NCBI GenBank assembly: GCA_964463445.1
Contig: CAYXBX010000001.1
Span: forward strand, 1 to 42,900
DNA from: an uncultured Planctomycetia bacterium
GTDB taxonomy: Bacteria > Omnitrophota > Gorgyraeia > Duberdicusellales > 4484-171
Reading direction: 5' to 3'
Length of the DNA: 42,900 bases
Shown here piece by piece: positions 8,824 to 41,689 of the stretch (positions within the stretch are counted from its first letter, which is position 1; each line of letters begins with the position of its first letter). Made by a program: the position numbers and the translations under genes. Under the pieces are notes generated by a model. That model ran no database searches. It saw only the letters and a list, made by a program, of their open reading frames with translations, and was not told the DNA's origin.

Positions 8824-9669
8824 ATGGGAGTAAAGAAGTTTAAACCAGTGACGTCGGGCTTGCGTTTTAGGGTAATTTCTGATTTTTCTGAGATTACGAA
8901 GGATAAACCTTGTAAGTCTTTGGTAGTCCCTCTTAAAAAAACAGGAGGAAGGAATAACTACGGCCGGATTACCTTAAGACACAGAGGAGGGGGGCATAAA
9001 AGAAGATACAGGATTGTTGATTTTAAAAGAGATAGGTTTGATGAGGAAGCATTGGTTTTATCTATAGAGTATGACCCCAACAGAAGTGCAAGGATAGCAT
9101 TGGTAGAGTATCCTGATAAAGAAAAAAGATACATTATATGGCCCGATGGACTAAAGGTGGGAGATAAGGTTGTAAGTGCTTTTGATTCGCAGATTGATAT
9201 AAGACCCGGCAATGCCATGAGGTTAAAGCATATTCCTTTGGGTACAATAGTGCATAATATTGAGTTAGAACCTAATCGGGGTGCTAAGCTGGTTAGAAGC
9301 GCAGGAAGCTGGGCACAGCTTATGGCTAAAGAAAGAGGATTTGCCCAGCTTAAGATGCCTTCAGGAGAAGTTCGTCTTGTTAAAGTGGATTGTCGGGCTA
9401 CTGTAGGACAGGTAGGAAATATTGAGAATAATTCTATTGTGCACGGTAAAGCAGGTAGAGTGCGCTGGTTAGGAAGAAGGCCTAAGGTAAGAGGGGTAGC
9501 AATGAACCCTGTAGACCATCCACATGGAGGTGGTGAGGGTAAAGCAGGGCAGGGCAATCCTCATCCTGTAAGTCCGTGGGGTAAGCCAGCTAAAGGAGGG
9601 AAAACCAGAAGGCCTAAGAATAAGAGTAATAAGTATATACTAAAACGCCGAGGTAAAAAGAGAAGGTAA
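8824..9669 (+). CDS. rplB: 50S ribosomal protein L2
   Basis: 281 aa with RHRGGGHKR and HPHGGGEGK motifs. Confidence 0.98.
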
Positions 9670-33427: not shown

Positions 33428-33500
33428 GCGCCCGTAGCTCAAAAGGACAGAGCGCAGGCCTCCTAAGCCTGATGTGGCCGTTCGATTCGGCCCGGGCGCA
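33428..33500 (+). tRNA. tRNA-Arg (anticodon CCT)
   Basis: Hand-folded cloverleaf. Acceptor stem GCGCCCG/CGGGCGC, D stem GCTC/GAGC, anticodon stem CAGGC/GCCTG with loop CTCCTAA, T arm GGCCG-TTCGATT-CGGCC, discriminator A. No encoded CCA. Confidence 0.9.
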
Positions 33501-35075: not shown

Positions 35076-35094
35076 GTAGAAAAGGTGATTTAAG

Positions 35095-35125
35095 CCCCGT
35101 GCATATTATATGCACGGGGTTTTTT
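35095..35125 (+). terminator. Rho-independent terminator after the porin gene
   Basis: Perfect 11-bp stem CCCCGTGCATA/TATGCACGGGG (35095-35119) with a 3-nt loop, followed by TTTTTT. Confidence 0.9.
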
Positions 35126-35126
35126 A

Positions 35127-35154
35127 TTGATTATTTTACTATCTAAAGTATAAT
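35127..35154 (+). promoter_or_regulatory. Putative sigma-70 promoter of the six-gene operon
   Basis: TTGATT (35127-35132), 16-nt spacer, consensus TATAAT (35149-35154). It lies 24 nt upstream of the ATG, which is preceded by AAGGAGG. Confidence 0.6.
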
Positions 35155-35177: not shown

Positions 35178-35510
35178 ATGGGTGATGAGTTAAAGTTGCC
35201 TGATGAAGAAATAAGAGAAGGAGCAGCATTTGCGGCTCTATCTTATGTATTTTTTCTGTGGATTTTAGCTTTTATCTTTAAGAAAGATAATCGCTTTGCT
35301 CATTTTCATGCCCGTCAGGGGTTGGTTATTTTTGTCTTAGAGATTATATGTTTTTTTATGCCTTTTATACCTATTCTGGGAGGTTTGCTGTACGTTTGGG
35401 GATGGATTCTTCTTGTTGTTGCCTCTTTATACGGGGTTTATTCTTCTTTAACAGGAAAACTATGCCATATGCCTTTTATTACCCGTATTGCCTCTAAAAT
35501 GGTGATTTAA
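35178..35510 (+). CDS. Small membrane protein, DUF4870-like
   Basis: 110 aa with 3 predicted TM helices. The motif NRFAHFHARQGL after the first TM is typical of that family as I recall it. Confidence 0.7.
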   Translation: MGDELKLPDEEIREGAAFAALSYVFFLWILAFIFKKDNRFAHFHARQGLVIFVLEIICFFMPFIPILGGLLYVWGWILLVVASLYGVYSSLTGKLCHMPFITRIASKMVI

Positions 35511-35511
35511 T

Positions 35512-36210
35512 ATGAAAAGAAACAAAAGCAAATTTATATCCTTAGAAAAGAACAAACATATATTTGGCAATGACTTTATAAGAGGAGACACCTGGCGGGT
35601 TTTCCGTATTATGAGTGAGTTTGTAGAAGGCTTTGAGGGGCTTTCTGATATAAAAAAAGGCGTTGTATTTTTTGGTTCAAAAAGATCCCCTTCTACCAGT
35701 TCCTTTTACAAATTAGCCCGTAAAACCGCATATATTCTTACTAAGAAAGGGTATACTGTAATGACAGGTGCAGGCCCGGGCATAATGGAAGCTGCTAACC
35801 GAGGGGCAAAGGAGGCAGGTGGGACTTCTGTAGGGTTAAATATTCTTGTTCCTGAGCAGCAGGTTCCTAATAAGTTTGTTAATTACCTTTTGGAGTTCAG
35901 ATATTTCTTTGTGAGAAAAGTTATGTTTGTCAAATATTCCTGTGCCTTTGTGGTTTTTCCCGGAGGCTATGGCACTCTTGATGAGCTTTTTGAGGGGTTG
36001 GCCTTGGTTCAGACAGAAAGAATTCCTTCCTTTCCTATTATTCTTGTGGGTAAAAGTTTCTGGCGAGGTCTTTTAAGCTGGCTTAAGGAGACTTTGATAA
36101 AAGAAGGCACAATTGTTTCCTCTGATTTGTATTTATTTAAGGTTGTGGATACACCCGCTGAGGTTATAAACTCTATAAGTAGCTTTTACAGAAAGAAAAA
36201 GAAGCAGTGA
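35512..36210 (+). CDS. LOG-family protein (TIGR00730-type Rossmann fold; nucleotide 5'-monophosphate nucleosidase-like)
   Basis: 232 aa with TGAGPGIMEAANRGA and the LOG signature PGGYGTLDE. It starts 1 nt after the upstream stop. Confidence 0.85.
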   Translation: MKRNKSKFISLEKNKHIFGNDFIRGDTWRVFRIMSEFVEGFEGLSDIKKGVVFFGSKRSPSTSSFYKLARKTAYILTKKGYTVMTGAGPGIMEAANRGAKEAGGTSVGLNILVPEQQVPNKFVNYLLEFRYFFVRKVMFVKYSCAFVVFPGGYGTLDELFEGLALVQTERIPSFPIILVGKSFWRGLLSWLKETLIKEGTIVSSDLYLFKVVDTPAEVINSISSFYRKKKKQ

Positions 36211-36506
36211 AGGCTTTTTTAAGAGCGTGGTACAAATTTGATGTTGATGATATAAGGAATTCTCTTTTTGTAATAGGAGAACTAAGCGGAGAGTGTTTCT
36301 CCTGCCATAAAGTAGGTATAAGTATTGGAGAGAAAACCTGCCCTCAATGCAAAAAAGAGTTTAAGTTCATAGCTTTCAGAAGAAGAGCGGATTCTTCTGT
36401 GATAGAGCGTTTTCGCAAGAGGTATCCTAAAGAGGTGTTTGTTGACTTTGACGATTTTAAAAAAGCAGTAGGTAGAAGCTCTGCCCGCAAACTGCTTGAT
36501 ATTTAG
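36207..36506 (+). CDS. Hypothetical protein with CxxH...CxxC zinc-ribbon-like motif
   Basis: 99 aa. The GTG start overlaps the LOG stop (GTGA). CFSCHK...CPQCKK. I recognise no family. Confidence 0.55.
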   Translation: MKAFLRAWYKFDVDDIRNSLFVIGELSGECFSCHKVGISIGEKTCPQCKKEFKFIAFRRRADSSVIERFRKRYPKEVFVDFDDFKKAVGRSSARKLLDI

Positions 36507-36531
36507 TAGGTTTTTAAAAAAGGAGGAGAAA

Positions 36532-36930
36532 ATGAAAGCAGTAAAAGCACAGGAACTTTTCATAAAAGGTAAGAACAAAGTAGGTGCTTTGGCCGAATTA
36601 GCTAAGATAATTTCTTCTGGCGGCGTTAATATAAGAGCCATTTCTGCCTGGGCAGTTGGTGATGAGGCATTTTTTAGAATGCTTACTTCAGATAATGCCA
36701 AGACAAAAGAGTTATTAGCAAATAACGGGTATGCTTTTGAGGAGAAAGAGGTGGTTGTGGTTGAACTTGCGGATAAAATAGGCCAGCTTAGCTTGTTATC
36801 AGATAAATTAAAAGAAGCCAATATAGACTTAACTTATATTTATGGTACAACTTCTAAACCTGAGCATGAAGCAATACTTGTATTTTCTTCCAATGATAAT
36901 GATAAAGCAGTAGAGATTATCTCTTCCTAA
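36532..36930 (+). CDS. Tandem ACT-domain protein (small-molecule binding)
   Basis: Start taken at ATG 36532, 7 nt downstream of AGGAGGAG. Two ACT-like repeats of about 65 aa each (GKNKVGALAELAKIISSGGVNI and ADKIGQLSLLSDKLKEANIDL). Confidence 0.75.
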   Translation: MKAVKAQELFIKGKNKVGALAELAKIISSGGVNIRAISAWAVGDEAFFRMLTSDNAKTKELLANNGYAFEEKEVVVVELADKIGQLSLLSDKLKEANIDLTYIYGTTSKPEHEAILVFSSNDNDKAVEIISS

Positions 36931-36943
36931 CCTATCTTTTTAA

Positions 36944-38164
36944 ATGAGGTTATACTTTCCTCATAATTTCTTATGGGGTTCGAGTATCTCTAGTTATCAA
37001 ACCGAAGGTGGAAATATCTACAGTGACTGGTTTCTGTGGGAGAAAGAGCAAGGATTAGAACACGCAGGAGCTTCAGCCAATCATTATAAGTTTTTTAAGG
37101 AAGATATAGAGATTGCCTCTTCTTTATCTCATAATGCCTTTCGTTTTTCTCTGGAGTGGTCAAGAATTTACCCCCATAAAGACAGATTTAACGAAGTCGG
37201 CTTTAAGCATTATGAAGATGTCATAAGTACGCTTAAAAAGTACAATATAACGCCCGTTGTTACTTTACATCATTTTACCAATCCTATATGGTATACTAAA
37301 GAGGGCGGGTGGCTAAATCATAAACTTATAGATTATTTTTTGTGTTATGTAAGAAAAGCAGTCTCTCTATTAAAGGATAATGTAAAGTACTGGATAATTT
37401 TTAATGAGCCTGTGGTGTATGTTTATAATGGCTTCTTAGAAGGCATATGGCCTCCAGGGTTAAAATCCACGAAGGAAGCTTTGCGTGCCTTAAGGAATAT
37501 CTTAAGAGCCTACATTTTATCTTATCAAGAGATAAAGAGGATATACGCAGATAAAAAATCTTTTCTCTCCATAGCAAAGAATATGAGAGTGTTTATTCCC
37601 TGTTTTTATTTAAACTTTGGGCAGAACAATCTTTTTTCTTTTATAAGAAGCCGTTTCTTCAACTTCTATGTGCTGGATTATTTATACAAGAATAGATGCC
37701 TTGATTTTATTGGTTTAAATTACTATTGCGGGGAATTTACAAAAGCTAATTTTTCCCTCTGGGGCAGAGAATGCACAGACGCTCATCACAAACTTAAGAG
37801 GAATGATTTGGGATGGCTTGTTTTTCCTTCTGGCCTGTATAATTTGCTTGTTAGGCTAAGAAATTATAATCTGCCTATAGTTATAACTGAAAACGGAACA
37901 GTCACCCCCCTCGATGAAGAGTACGCCTCGTTTATGATTTCTCACATAGAGAGCGTAGCGAAAGCCATTAATGATGGAGTGGACGTTAGGGGGTATTTCT
38001 GGTGGTCTCTCCTTGACAATTTTGAGTGGGATAAAGGTTACAGCTGTAGATTTGGGTTAGTAGACGTTGATTTTAACAATTTTTCAAGGAAAATAAAGCC
38101 TTTTGCCTTAAAGTACAGAGATATATGCAGGAATAATTTTATAGACATAGAGAATGTTGACTGA
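36944..38164 (+). CDS. Glycoside hydrolase family 1 beta-glucosidase, cytoplasmic
   Basis: 406 aa with FPHNFLWGSSISSYQTEGG, acid/base NEP (IFNEPVVY) and nucleophile ITENG. No signal peptide. Confidence 0.88.
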   Translation: MRLYFPHNFLWGSSISSYQTEGGNIYSDWFLWEKEQGLEHAGASANHYKFFKEDIEIASSLSHNAFRFSLEWSRIYPHKDRFNEVGFKHYEDVISTLKKYNITPVVTLHHFTNPIWYTKEGGWLNHKLIDYFLCYVRKAVSLLKDNVKYWIIFNEPVVYVYNGFLEGIWPPGLKSTKEALRALRNILRAYILSYQEIKRIYADKKSFLSIAKNMRVFIPCFYLNFGQNNLFSFIRSRFFNFYVLDYLYKNRCLDFIGLNYYCGEFTKANFSLWGRECTDAHHKLKRNDLGWLVFPSGLYNLLVRLRNYNLPIVITENGTVTPLDEEYASFMISHIESVAKAINDGVDVRGYFWWSLLDNFEWDKGYSCRFGLVDVDFNNFSRKIKPFALKYRDICRNNFIDIENVD

Positions 38165-39998
38165 AGAGATAATATCTGCCTTTTCTCCCTTTAACCGTCT
38201 TAAAAAGAGCCAGGTTAAAGAGCTTCTTAATATCTCTTCTCTTAGAGAATACAAGAAGGGAGAAATAATCTATCGTGAGGGAGAAAACCCCGGATATTTC
38301 TATTTTCTTGTTAAAGGAAGAGTTGTTGCTATTTCGTCCATTGAAGGAAGAGAACGTGAGATAGAGCTTATAAAGAAGGGGACTCCTTTTGGCATCATCT
38401 CTCTTTTTACTAAAGATCCCCACTCTGTTACGACTAAGGCCATTGAGAATTGCCTTATTGTTGTTATAAGAGAGGATAAGTTTAGGAATTTTGTAGAGAA
38501 AAGTCCGTTTCTTGCCTTCTATTTTTCTCAGGTTCTTTCCAGGAGAGTAAAGAAACGAGCAGACAGGCCGAAGAGAATATTTAAATCCACCGGTATTGTT
38601 TCCATCTTGGACGGCGATTATATGCAGTTGTTCTCTGTGGTAATTGAGCTGGCAGGCCTTCTTAGTCTGCACAATAAAAAGGAAGTTATTGTTGTAGAGG
38701 CGTCATCTTCTGGAAGTTTTGTACTTCCTGGGGTAGTGGGTGAGAATGTAGATACTTTTAATCTTGATGGGGAATTTAGAGAAGACTTATCAGTAAGAAA
38801 GATAAAAGGAGTAAATTTCTTGTGTCTAAAGATGGATACAACTTTTAAAGATGAGTTGTTTTCCTTTGGCAACTTTCTGTTAGAGAACTACCATTTTATT
38901 TTCTATATTATCCGCAAGGAAGATATCGATTACTGGCTTACCGTTTTTAATGTTGTTAATCACATTTATATTTTGTGTAACCGGCTGGATAAAGATGTTT
39001 TTCTTTCTAAAAAGATTAAGAGCATAACAGATAAATTTAAGTACATAGAAAAGACAGTAAGAGTGATTTTGACGGATAGAGATGGCTATCCAGAGGTTGG
39101 CCAGGCTCGTAAACATAGAGACGAAGAGATTGTTATTTTAGGCAAAAGAGGGCACAAAGATTACAAAAAGAGATTGGGGCATCTGGAAAGAGTTTTAGCA
39201 GAAAAGACCTTAGGATTAGCTTTGGGCAGCGGGGGAGCATATGGTCTTGCTCATATAGGAGTTCTTAAGGCTATTGCTGAAAGCAATGTGCCTTTGGATA
39301 TGGTATGCGGTTCAAGTATTGGTTCGGTTATTGCAGCGATGTGGGCATTAGGTTTTTCTTTTAAAGATATGGGCACGGCAGTTGATTTACTCAGCAGGAG
39401 AATAAAATTGTTTTCTTTCACATCTTTTACCTTCCCCTTTAGAGGCATAGTAAAAGCGAGGCGGCTGGAAGGTGTATTTAAAGAAATATTTGGCAGACGT
39501 TCATTTAAAGACGTAGTCTGTCCTTTGGCGGTGGTTGCTTTTAATTTTAAGAAACGTCAGATAGTTGCCATAGATGAGGGGCTAATTTATAAGGCTGTAA
39601 GCGCAAGCTGTGCTATGCCGGGGATATTTGAGCCTGTTGTCTTTAATAATGAGATGTTTCTTGACGGAGGAGTGTTAAGCCCTCTTCCTACAAAGATACT
39701 TCTTCAGTTTGATATAAAGAAGATAGTGGCTGCAAACGTTACTCCTCGCCGCGAAGAAATCCGCAATGTTTATCGTAAAAAGAGTATTTTTAATGTGTTT
39801 GATTTCATCTTTGGCAGCATAGAAACTATGCAGCAGGAATTTATAAGAGGGTCTTTGGATATTTCCGATGTAGTTATACATCCTGATTTAGGAGATTTGA
39901 GCTGGACTGATTTTAGCGCTAAAGACGAATTTATAAAGAGAGGATACGAAGCTACTTTAAGAGTTCTTCCTCAGATTAAAGAACTTCTTTCTGGTTGA
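38154..39998 (+). CDS. cNMP-binding-like domain / central P-loop-less ParA-like region / patatin-like phospholipase
   Basis: 614 aa. The N-terminal CAP/CNB-type beta-roll (GEIIYREGENPGYFYFLVKGRV) has a degenerate phosphate-binding cassette. The patatin domain has oxyanion GSGGAYG, GxSxG as GSSIG (Ser388) and DGG (Asp504). It overlaps the GH1 gene by 11 nt. Confidence 0.85.
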   Translation: MLTEEIISAFSPFNRLKKSQVKELLNISSLREYKKGEIIYREGENPGYFYFLVKGRVVAISSIEGREREIELIKKGTPFGIISLFTKDPHSVTTKAIENCLIVVIREDKFRNFVEKSPFLAFYFSQVLSRRVKKRADRPKRIFKSTGIVSILDGDYMQLFSVVIELAGLLSLHNKKEVIVVEASSSGSFVLPGVVGENVDTFNLDGEFREDLSVRKIKGVNFLCLKMDTTFKDELFSFGNFLLENYHFIFYIIRKEDIDYWLTVFNVVNHIYILCNRLDKDVFLSKKIKSITDKFKYIEKTVRVILTDRDGYPEVGQARKHRDEEIVILGKRGHKDYKKRLGHLERVLAEKTLGLALGSGGAYGLAHIGVLKAIAESNVPLDMVCGSSIGSVIAAMWALGFSFKDMGTAVDLLSRRIKLFSFTSFTFPFRGIVKARRLEGVFKEIFGRRSFKDVVCPLAVVAFNFKKRQIVAIDEGLIYKAVSASCAMPGIFEPVVFNNEMFLDGGVLSPLPTKILLQFDIKKIVAANVTPRREEIRNVYRKKSIFNVFDFIFGSIETMQQEFIRGSLDISDVVIHPDLGDLSWTDFSAKDEFIKRGYEATLRVLPQIKELLSG

Positions 39999-40001
39999 TG
40001 T

Positions 40002-41024
40002 TTAGTTAATCATCACTACAGAATTCTTCCCGCCGAAAGCATCGTCTTCCTGGAGATTATTCGAGGGGTCATTTATCCATCTTCCATCCGCTATAAACTT
40101 ATAGCTGTATTTTCCTTTCTTAAGTGGCAAATCGATAGCCCAGGTATCGTTGTCTACTTTCTTAAGCTTGTAATTATCACAAGGAGCCCAGTCATTAAAT
40201 TCTCCTACCAGATAGACTTCTTTAAAATCTTTTCCTTTTAAGACGAACTTTACAAGACGTGGAGGGTGTGATATTTTTTCTATTTCCTGCGCAAGCTGGC
40301 GGTAATCTTGACTTCCACGTGAATCCTTTTTATACTCAAAGATACTTAAGCCGCTGGCAGCAGCCTCTCTAAGGTGAATATTGGTCCTGATTACGGTAGA
40401 TAAGAGAGCATTGCCAAAATATTCCTGGATTTTCTTATAGAATGATTGGGAGAATTTAAAACGTCTATCTAACTGAGTGAGGAGGTAGTGTATTTGAGGA
40501 GCTACTTTCTTATGTTCGTACAGTATTTTTATAATATTGTTTAAGTTCTCTACGCCTTTGAGAGAGAGCTCACATACCCCAATAGGGACAATAATATAAC
40601 TGCTTGATACTAAAGCACTTAGGGTAAGAACTCCCAGATTAGGGGGGCAATCTATAATGCAATATTCAAATGCTGCTTCGTATTTGTTTAGTGCGTTTGA
40701 AAGCACATCCAACTTATTCTTGTGTTCTATTAGTGATTGTTCGACGGCGCTTAAGCCAATACTGGAGGGTAACACATAGAGATTGTTGGCACGGTTTGTA
40801 AGATAACTGTTATAATCAAAAGGACGGTTGTTTATAATATTATCAAAAAAGTCAGAGGAAGTGTATTTGGGTTTTATTCCTAAAGAGAATGTAGCGTGTG
40901 CCTGGGGATCTAAATCTGCCATAAGAACGCGTCTACCCCTATTGGCTAAGGCGTAGGCTAAATTTACTGCTGTAGTTGTCTTACCGCAGCCTCCTTTCTG
41001 GTTAATCAGAGATATTATAATCAT
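40002..41024 (-). CDS. ParA/MinD-family ATPase fused to a C-terminal AMPK-beta/CBM48-type glycan-binding domain
   Basis: 340 aa with deviant Walker A and signature Lys (NQKGGCGKTT). The C-terminal 85 aa are VKFVLKGKDFKEVYLVGEFNDW...YSYKFIADGRWINDP...GGKNSVVMI. The GGAGG SD overlaps the upstream gene's last sense codons, directly abutting its TAA stop. Confidence 0.85.
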   Translation of the reverse strand: MIIISLINQKGGCGKTTTAVNLAYALANRGRRVLMADLDPQAHATFSLGIKPKYTSSDFFDNIINNRPFDYNSYLTNRANNLYVLPSSIGLSAVEQSLIEHKNKLDVLSNALNKYEAAFEYCIIDCPPNLGVLTLSALVSSSYIIVPIGVCELSLKGVENLNNIIKILYEHKKVAPQIHYLLTQLDRRFKFSQSFYKKIQEYFGNALLSTVIRTNIHLREAAASGLSIFEYKKDSRGSQDYRQLAQEIEKISHPPRLVKFVLKGKDFKEVYLVGEFNDWAPCDNYKLKKVDNDTWAIDLPLKKGKYSYKFIADGRWINDPSNNLQEDDAFGGKNSVVMIN

Positions 41025-41026
41025 CC

Positions 41027-41689
41027 TTACCTCCTTTTTCTCAATATTATCTCTTTTATTAGCACAGGCAATGAATTGATTTCATCCTGATAGAATATAA
41101 ATCTTAACTGAGTTATCCGTTTAGTATTAAGGGTGCCATCTACAATATTTTTTATTGTTATAGGTATTTCTATATAAGCAGAATCTTCTTCGGGGCTAGT
41201 TACTACTTTTTCTAAAGGACTCTTCGCGTTAGAGAAAAAATTATTATCTCTTAAGATAAGACGGATGTTGAATTTTTTTCTTACATTCTTAACTACAAGG
41301 GTTATTGTAGAGTTGGAGATGTCAATTTTATCCTTTAGATTAATAGCAAAGCCACTGTCGGCGTTAAACGGCACGTCAATCAAAATGGTGTTTTTTGTTA
41401 TTTTAGAACCTAACTGGGGGTTGATTAGAGTAATAGATGATACTAACTCATTTTTTAGTAAGCTAATCTCACTGTCTTTAAGAGGGTTTTTGTATTGAGG
41501 CAGGATTAATACATTAAAATTTAATACGAAGAAAGTTGTAAGTACAGCTATACATAGAAAAACAATTCCACCTATAACAATAATTTTTTTCTTTCTTTTT
41601 GGCTTTTTTTCTCTGGGGGAAAAGAAGGTTTTCTCTAAACGCCGCGAATCATCTAAGGAGATGGGATTAAGATTAGAGAAATCAATCAT
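41027..41689 (-). CDS. Bitopic membrane protein of unknown family (basic cytoplasmic tail, one TM, beta-rich extracytoplasmic domain)
   Basis: 220 aa. The N-terminal 35 aa end in REKKPKRKKK. The TM helix IIVIGGIVFLCIAVLTTFFVLNF spans about aa 36-58. The C-terminal domain is about 160 aa. First gene of the two-gene minus-strand operon. Confidence 0.65.
   Translation of the reverse strand: MIDFSNLNPISLDDSRRLEKTFFSPREKKPKRKKKIIVIGGIVFLCIAVLTTFFVLNFNVLILPQYKNPLKDSEISLLKNELVSSITLINPQLGSKITKNTILIDVPFNADSGFAINLKDKIDISNSTITLVVKNVRKKFNIRLILRDNNFFSNAKSPLEKVVTSPEEDSAYIEIPITIKNIVDGTLNTKRITQLRFIFYQDEINSLPVLIKEIILRKRR

Follow-up and report, generated by a model that had tools for sequence, protein, structure and literature searches.

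What occupies the middle third of a bacterial patatin-like protein when domain annotation labels only its two ends? The question is raised by a gene on a 42,900-nucleotide (nt) stretch of DNA from an uncultured bacterium placed in the phylum Omnitrophota (contig CAYXBX010000001.1 of assembly GCA_964463445.1, positions 1 to 42,900 of the forward strand), which we refer to here as the window. At positions 38154–39998 of its forward strand lies an open reading frame (ORF) of 614 amino acids (aa) for protein P0001, referred to here as the window protein. An initial annotation, made by reading the letters alone, had described it as a patatin phospholipase with a degenerate cyclic nucleotide-binding (CNB) domain and, between the two, a region resembling a MinD/ParA ATPase without its P-loop. 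We found the ORF exactly as described, and the motif strings cited for it sit at the residues given (the phosphate-binding cassette (PBC), SILDGDYMQLF at aa 150–160, GSGGAYG, GSSIG and DGG). The gene and its parts are as follows.

38154–39998, forward strand: whole gene P0001, a CNB-like / pseudo-MinD-ParA / patatin protein of 614 aa; its start overlaps the stop of an upstream glycoside hydrolase family 1 (GH1) gene by 11 nt (full-length AlphaFold2 model)
38154–38567, forward strand: N-terminal CNB domain (CAP-type beta-roll), aa 1–138 (Pfam cNMP_binding; Foldseek)
38388–38441, forward strand: non-canonical PBC, FGIISLFTKDPHSVTTKA, aa 79–96 (alignment to the CNB domain of PKG; ortholog columns; outgroup)
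38568–39209, forward strand: central pseudo-NTPase domain with MinD/ParA (SIMIBI) fold, aa 139–352 (AlphaFold2, Foldseek against pdb, hhalign, HMMER profile)
38607–38630, forward strand: Walker A remnant LDGDYMQL, aa 152–159, where the family consensus is G-x-x-x-S-G-K-T (ortholog column counts)
38889–38915, forward strand: Walker B remnant YHFIFYIIR, aa 246–254, where the family has Y-H-F-I-x-Y-E-I-P and MinD has Y-D-x-I-I-I-D-x-P (ortholog columns; hhalign and PDB-profile alignments)
39210–39995, forward strand: patatin-like lipid acyl hydrolase domain, aa 353–614 (Pfam Patatin; PlpD match; Foldseek)
39225–39245, forward strand: glycine-rich oxyanion loop GSGGAYG, aa 358–364, with Tyr363 instead of the usual Arg/Lys (motif position; orthologs)
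39309–39323, forward strand: nucleophile elbow GSSIG, aa 386–390, with Ser388 (G386, S388 and G390 in 96/96 orthologs)
39663–39671, forward strand: catalytic Asp504 in DGG, aa 504–506 (D504 and G505 in 96/96)

Domain architecture of the window protein

Pfam labelled the two ends of the protein (cNMP_binding at aa 31–116, 74.2 bits against a gathering cutoff of 27.5; Patatin at aa 355–516, 104.6 bits) and returned no match across aa ~140–350, and the central region taken alone drew none even at E≤10. The full-length AlphaFold2 model scored a predicted local distance difference test (pLDDT) value of 87.6 and a predicted template modelling (pTM) score of 0.88; when it was searched with Foldseek, each solved structure spanned at most one of the three domains. 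A transmembrane segment and a signal peptide were looked for in the window protein and neither was found. Over 250 homologs spanning the full ~615 aa were recovered, and those with a source name come almost all from Candidatus Omnitrophota; all ortholog column counts given here, including those at the Walker, PBC and patatin positions, refer to an alignment of 96 sequences. We think it likely that the window protein is a soluble cytoplasmic three-domain lipid hydrolase, single-copy and vertically inherited in Omnitrophota.

Ancestry of the central domain

The AlphaFold2 model of aa 139–352 (pLDDT 86.6, pTM 0.87) has the seven-stranded alpha/beta fold of the MinD/ParA/NifH/Get3 type, and its top 50 Foldseek matches in pdb all belong to the MinD/ParA superfamily (MinD/ParA/NifH/BchL/Get3/HypB/FleN/SegA/Wzc; probability ~1.0, query-normalised TM score (TMq) 0.45–0.65). 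Comparison of profiles gave the same placement: hhalign joined the central-domain profile to bona fide MinD/ParA/CpaE-like proteins at 99.4% (E 7e-22, 189 columns) in a register that sets DGDYMQL exactly on KGGVGKT and YHFIFYIIR on YDxIIIDxP, and the best PDB sequences for the profile were MinD (4v02), the ParA-family ATPase 3ea0, FleN and Soj. An HMMER search with the same profile against 1.84e9 proteins reached Pfam-verified proteins of REC+AAA_31/ParA/CbiA composition (the CpaE/TadZ-like layout), stand-alone ParA/MinD proteins and AraC-fused proteins.

Some relatives of the window protein carry the label directly. The isolated central region of the ortholog P0036 matches Pfam AAA_31 above the gathering cutoff over profile positions 2–166 of 177, and AAA_31 is above cutoff also in P0130; within a distant subfamily of ~680 aa, many members have direct AAA_31, CbiA or ParA matches (precomputed PF10609/PF01656/PF13614), and one of them is named 'RssA/BcsQ' by JGI. 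Judged by five independent lines drawn from sequence and predicted structure, the central domain is a descendant of a P-loop NTPase of MinD/ParA/CpaE type. The by-eye recognition of a MinD/ParA fold without its P-loop, which the initial annotation had offered together with the suggestion of profile-profile searches and structure prediction, was thus borne out: no unrelated fold emerged from either approach, only the MinD/ParA superfamily, and orthologs have GxxxxGK[ST] at the very position of DGDYMQL.

Loss and retention of the nucleotide site

Most orthologs retain the residues that the window protein lacks. At the Walker A columns, Gly is found at position 152 in 68 of the 96 sequences, Gly at 157 in 67, Lys at 158 in 72 and Thr or Ser at 159 in 78, and GK[ST] is intact in 63, or about two thirds; the window protein has L152, M157, Q158 and L159 and does not fit GxxxxGK[ST]. 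The loss extends to Walker B, a point that the initial annotation had overlooked: Glu252 is present in 71/96 sequences, and the window protein has Ile252, so that the acid is absent. In the outgroup subfamily, both Walker A (SKGVGKST) and Walker B (YHFIIVDL or FDYCILDL, with the Walker B Asp) are retained, and the intact nucleotide site is therefore taken as ancestral.

Walker A and Walker B losses go together across the family (62 sequences with both intact, 22 with both lost, 12 mixed; Fisher p=1.4e-12). On a tree built without the Walker-site columns, the P-loop changed state 6–9 times, and the window protein falls inside a clade in which it is lost throughout (SH-like approximate likelihood ratio test, SH-aLRT, 95). 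With Walker A and Walker B both lost in this lineage, the central domain of the window protein is predicted to be incapable of canonical nucleotide binding or hydrolysis. The domain is nonetheless still under purifying selection after the loss: measured against an ortholog of 88% identity, its ratio of non-synonymous to synonymous substitution rates (dN/dS) is 0.13; the CNB and patatin domains give 0.08 and 0.09, respectively. Y246 and H247 are kept in 94–96 of the 96 sequences, as is an E-x-Y-H-F motif ahead of the Walker B strand, including in lineages without the nucleotide site. At matched flank divergence, central-domain identity is 33% in pairs that have lost the P-loop versus 41%, a faster divergence that indicates somewhat relaxed constraint.

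The family is also unusual where the P-loop is intact. The signature lysine of the deviant Walker A motif of MinD/ParA proteins (KGGxGK[ST]) is missing throughout the core family, with 0 Lys at that position in 96 sequences, and a nearby Lys occurs only in the distant subfamily (SKGVGKST); even the intact forms may therefore not be canonical ATP-sandwich dimers.

Two relatives have an apparently split or frameshifted ortholog. In G015 (C256:49650-50293) the central domain is spread across two overlapping frames, and in L057 (CP070797.1) the best tblastn segment begins only at nt 9008; these genes could be pseudogenes or assembly errors.

A fixed variant of the phosphate-binding cassette

The N-terminal domain is a CNB domain by score, as given above, and by fold (a beta-roll by Foldseek, with a root-mean-square deviation of 1.8–3 Å to GlxR/CRP/HCN/PKG). 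In the PBC of such domains, a Glu contacts the ribose 2'-OH and an Arg contacts the cyclic phosphate. A phmmer alignment to Plasmodium PKG (5dyk) places I81 opposite the PBC Glu and H90 opposite the PBC Arg, the two replacements from which the initial annotation had argued that classical binding of cAMP or cGMP is unlikely. That part of the reading stands; its description of the cassette as degenerate does not. F79, G80, I82, S83 and H90 are found in 96/96 sequences and S91 and V92 in 95/96, position 81 is hydrophobic in 96/96, and the same FGIISLLTGEPHSVT recurs in the outgroup, whose identity is ~27%. Because it is invariant in 96 orthologs and in so distant an outgroup, we regard the cassette not as decayed but as a fixed, selected variant, and its residues point to a conserved, re-tuned site. 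The ligand is probably something other than cAMP or cGMP.

The patatin domain and its operon

The enzyme at the C-terminus has the features of a patatin (104.6 bits), with the GxSxG nucleophile S388 and the Asp D504 of DG[GA] in 96/96 sequences and the flanking glycines invariant. Its best structural match is PlpD (5fqu; E 2.7e-22, Foldseek target-normalised TM score (TMt) 0.81), followed by CapE and CapV. The intact Ser388/Asp504 dyad to which the initial annotation had drawn attention is thus invariant in the family, and the lipase is, to judge from these residues, probably active. One nuance concerns the glycine-rich loop: its glycines are conserved, but 95/96 sequences have Tyr or Phe at position 363 and none has Arg or Lys there (PlpD has SGGAARG). 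Some PNPLA lipases likewise have no basic residue in this loop. As a lead only, and going by general knowledge of PNPLA enzymes, an aromatic residue at 363 may indicate a substrate without a phosphate head-group.

The patatin gene is the last of six same-strand genes in a predicted operon (35178–39998) that is bounded by a hairpin and a promoter-like site, both found by consensus scan only. The following features lie upstream of it.

36944–38164, forward strand: GH1 glycosidase of 406 aa, the conserved same-strand upstream partner (Pfam Glyco_hydro_1, 262.5 bits)
36496–36930, forward strand: tandem-ACT protein, a conserved operon member (Pfam ACT and ACT_8; in 39/80 loci)
35092–35154, forward strand: terminator-like hairpin at 35092–35122, then the best promoter-like site at 35127–35154 (consensus scan only)

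The GH1 gene lies directly upstream in 53 of the 71 loci with enough flank, and in the window its 3' end overlaps the patatin start; it is a tight, conserved partner of the lipase gene. The GH1 protein is short and without a signal peptide, and keeps the catalytic motifs NEP and ITENG; no other neighbour of the lipase is as well conserved. This pairing suggests a joint glycolipid or glycoside-lipid pathway. The lipase gene itself occurs in one copy in 30/41 relatives from several families and orders, among conserved metabolic neighbours (GH1, ACT, LOG).

Proposed mechanism

Taken together, the protein is most likely, and we would say with good though not complete confidence, the sensor / pseudo-NTPase / patatin protein set out above, a ligand-gated lipid hydrolase with a housekeeping role and a pseudo-NTPase as scaffold. 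In outline, the CNB-like domain would bind a ligand other than cAMP or cGMP, or would offer an unchanging surface for regulation. Between sensor and enzyme, the MinD-like domain, which persists as a folded module, would relay the state of the CNB domain to the lipase, probably through oligomerisation or through the position of the lipase domain; this relay would formerly have been a nucleotide-dependent switch and would now be a nucleotide-independent scaffold in the window lineage. The lipase, finally, may work with the translationally coupled GH1 enzyme in lipid or glycolipid turnover.

Several points weigh against this explanation. The ligand, the substrate and the oligomeric state of the family are all inferred. 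The ancestral 'ATP-dimer switch' is unproven, given that the P-loop-intact orthologs, too, have no signature lysine and have Glu rather than Asp in Walker B. His90 could still bind phosphate, and a cyclic or other nucleotide is a possible ligand. A class III cyclase occurs in 7 of the 30 protein-bearing genomes, including both same-genus relatives (~770 aa), and the assembly in which the window lies is incomplete (1.03 Mb versus 1.6–1.7 Mb in the same-genus genomes). No class III cyclase and no CYTH protein was found in the window genome, an incomplete assembly; because of that incompleteness, and because both same-genus relatives have the cyclase, its absence is no argument on its own. The assembly (G000) consists of 127 contigs and is maybe less complete than its 87% estimate when set beside G001 and G002.

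A more specific form of the mechanism is conceivable, though we give it a low probability. It takes 'FGIIS...PHSVT' to mark a His-type CNB domain for a ligand that is neither cAMP nor cGMP, the MinD/ParA-fold domain to be a transducer that drives oligomerisation or activation of the patatin, and the action to be on a non-phosphate lipid (neutral or glyco-), coupled to GH1, with the transducer nucleotide-independent in the window lineage. If true, the family would offer natural 'before and after' pairs for the conversion of an ATP switch into an allosteric scaffold.

A convergent ParA-CBM48 gene and other alternatives

The initial annotation had proposed a functional connection between the pseudo-ParA module and a real ParA-family ATPase encoded tail-to-tail with it.

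40002–41024, reverse strand: real ParA-type ATPase fused to a family 48 carbohydrate-binding module (CBM48); context gene (KGGCGKTT; AAA_31, 164.5 bits; AMPK1_CBM, 42.2 bits)

The neighbour is as it was described, with 3 nt from stop to stop. In its strongest form, the proposal would have the pseudo-ParA domain pair physically with ParA-CBM48, either as a heterodimer or through a common scaffold, and so link the lipase to a positioning system associated with glycogen. We consider this unlikely. Of the 22 related genomes that hold both genes, 17 have ParA-CBM48 within ~1 kb of the lipase gene and convergent with it, order-level relatives included, and it lies convergently downstream in 22 of 52 informative loci, so that the adjacency is a conserved feature; synteny ends just past this block (the RRM gene is kept in only 2/80 loci), both folds come from one superfamily with members that act as dimers, and a glycan theme is common to GH1 and CBM48. 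However, the two genes occur independently of each other across genomes (22 with both, 8 with the lipase only, 9 with ParA only, 2 with neither; Fisher p=0.70), and P-loop loss shows no correlation with the adjacency (11/21 vs. 11/24, p=0.77). Being convergent, the genes belong to separate transcription units, and in many relatives a DUF3108-like gene intervenes. The pseudo-domain also has neither the signature lysine nor the P-loop of canonical sandwich dimers. Of the proposed link, then, the adjacency is well documented and the rest is weakly supported. We also considered whether the pseudo-domain is a copy or a specific relative of the neighbouring ParA, and rejected this because hhalign joined it to the neighbouring ParA-CBM48 ATPase domains at only 18% over 36 columns (vs. 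the 99.4% for CpaE/MinD-like proteins).

The surroundings of this gene offer some further observations. No terminator-like hairpin was found by scan between the convergent genes (39996–40004), and with the gene ends 3 nt apart, antisense read-through of each gene into the 3' end of the other is possible. Full-length ParA-CBM48 orthologs are present in ~31/41 related genomes. Upstream of ParA-CBM48 in the window lies a 220-aa gene (41027–41689, reverse strand) with no Pfam match, which travels with it and stands beside it in 18/80 related loci. The gene that intervenes in many relatives encodes a conserved signal-peptide protein of ~240 aa, on the same strand, between the patatin gene and ParA-CBM48 (L013:9854-10754, L019:9824-10595, L031:9848-10810 and 8 other loci); its Pfam match to DUF3108 is weak (21 bits, below cutoff), and it is absent at this position in the window's clade.

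Less probable by a little is that the CNB domain is a classical cAMP or cGMP sensor with His90 in place of the Arg, and the protein an ordinary cyclic nucleoside monophosphate (cNMP)-regulated lipase of the NTE kind. The cNMP_binding score of 74 bits, the close fold match to the cAMP-bound domains of CRP/GlxR/HCN, the ability of His to contact phosphate and the ~770-aa cyclase of both same-genus relatives all fit such a sensor. Yet both universal cNMP contacts are replaced in 96/96 sequences, with position 81 always hydrophobic, and most host genomes (23/30 of those bearing the protein) lack a class III cyclase, with CYTH absent from the window genome. The window protein, moreover, holds its genome's only CNB domain.

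Still further down, we regard it as very improbable that the protein is an abortive-infection effector of the Pycsar/CBASS type, in which a phage-induced cyclic nucleotide would bind the CNB domain and the patatin would attack the cell's own membrane. The likeness is that of a patatin under the control of a nucleotide signal, or of a CNB domain fused to an effector: PADLOC models for CBASS phospholipase effectors score 44.8 bits and PycTIR/TIR-effector models score 25–31 bits on the CNB part, and the cyclic-nucleotide-activated CapE and CapV are the next structural matches after PlpD. These PADLOC matches are only generic domain matches, however, and the setting differs from that of CBASS and Pycsar in that the gene has no defence-island context or partner cyclase: it is a conserved gene, passed on vertically in one copy and found in 30/41 relatives of different families and orders, beside conserved metabolic genes rather than in a variable defence island, no cyclase is adjacent, 23/30 host genomes are without a class III cyclase, and the PBC is without the Arg and Glu used for cNMP binding.

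Finally, it is scarcely credible that the central domain of the window protein is a still-working NTPase relying on non-canonical residues, since, for all that its dN/dS is 0.13 and that the E-x-Y-H-F motif and Glu182 are kept, neither the two glycines, Lys and Thr of Walker A nor the acid of Walker B remain, Walker A and Walker B losses go together in the family as a whole (p=1.4e-12), the domain evolves faster after the loss, and the beta1-alpha1 loop is ~2 residues long in the predicted model.

Relation to known systems

The housekeeping, ligand-gated hydrolase that we favour is closest in layout to the eukaryotic neuropathy target esterases NTE/PNPLA6 and PNPLA7, in which one or more CNB domains stand upstream of a patatin (lyso)phospholipase and are regulatory, not catalytic; in PNPLA7, cNMP analogues shifted localisation and not activity (PMC5704489). 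Several orthologs are labelled 'NTE family protein' in their sources. The window protein differs from NTE in having a single CNB domain, not three, and in lacking a transmembrane anchor at its N-terminus. Pfam holds a model, PF24179 NTE_Ploop (223 positions; known here by its name and model), that gives the sensor / P-loop-like / patatin layout a precedent. It had no match in the window genome at E≤10 or, at E≤1, on the ortholog in any of 40 relatives, and it is absent from the precomputed Pfam assignments of ~155 listed family members. AAA_31, CbiA and ParA are what the central domain matches instead; filing the protein under NTE_Ploop was rejected because PF24179 does not match the family. 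Matches to PF24179 did appear in the control genomes of Bacillus subtilis, Caulobacter, Sulfolobus and Methanosarcina (above cutoff in one), which suggests that the model cross-reacts with prokaryotic P-loop proteins.

With the REC + MinD-like ATPases of the CpaE/TadZ type (~395 aa), the window protein shares, by homology, the fold of the ATPase domain, and the order of parts is alike: an N-terminal sensor of ~130 aa comes first and the ATPase domain second. The strands run in the same order as in MinD/ParA/CpaE proteins in general, and Walker A, switch I and Walker B fall at equivalent places; the differences are that the copy in the window protein has lost Walker A and B, that the core family is without the signature lysine, and that the domain is fused to an enzyme instead of being a free positioning ATPase. 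The closest solved catalytic relative is PlpD/RssA (PDB 5fqu, 5fya), which has the same Ser-Asp dyad (in GxSxG and DGG) and the same helical part at the C-terminus; the loop of PlpD reads SGGAARG where the family has GSGGA[YF]G, and PlpD is the passenger of a secreted autotransporter-type protein, whereas the window protein is cytoplasmic and carries two regulatory domains. CapV and CapE are switched on by filament formation upon ligand binding (PMC12480259). By analogy, ligand-driven oligomerisation as in CapV is the kind of mechanism that a MinD-like module could provide.

Literature searches turned up no account of the CNB / MinD-ParA / patatin architecture, only work on PNPLA6/7 and CapV. 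This is a real, conserved, phylum-wide and under-annotated family, built of known parts and not a new kind of system. NTE and PNPLA6-7 are medically important, and the working of their non-catalytic regions is poorly understood; the bacterial family places an identifiable MinD/ParA-type NTPase between sensor and lipase, with a series of intact and decayed orthologs and a strictly conserved, re-tuned CNB pocket, and its soluble proteins open both the function of that NTPase domain and the nature of the ligand to direct tests. It also corrects annotation, as most members carry no label beyond 'patatin-like' or 'NTE family', with the middle third left unlabelled. The window gene itself is a modest result, one member of a phylum-wide family in its decayed state.

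Among RNA features, Rfam found no riboswitch in the window, and its sole match at the gathering threshold there is a tRNA gene at 33428–33500 on the forward strand (66.3 bits).

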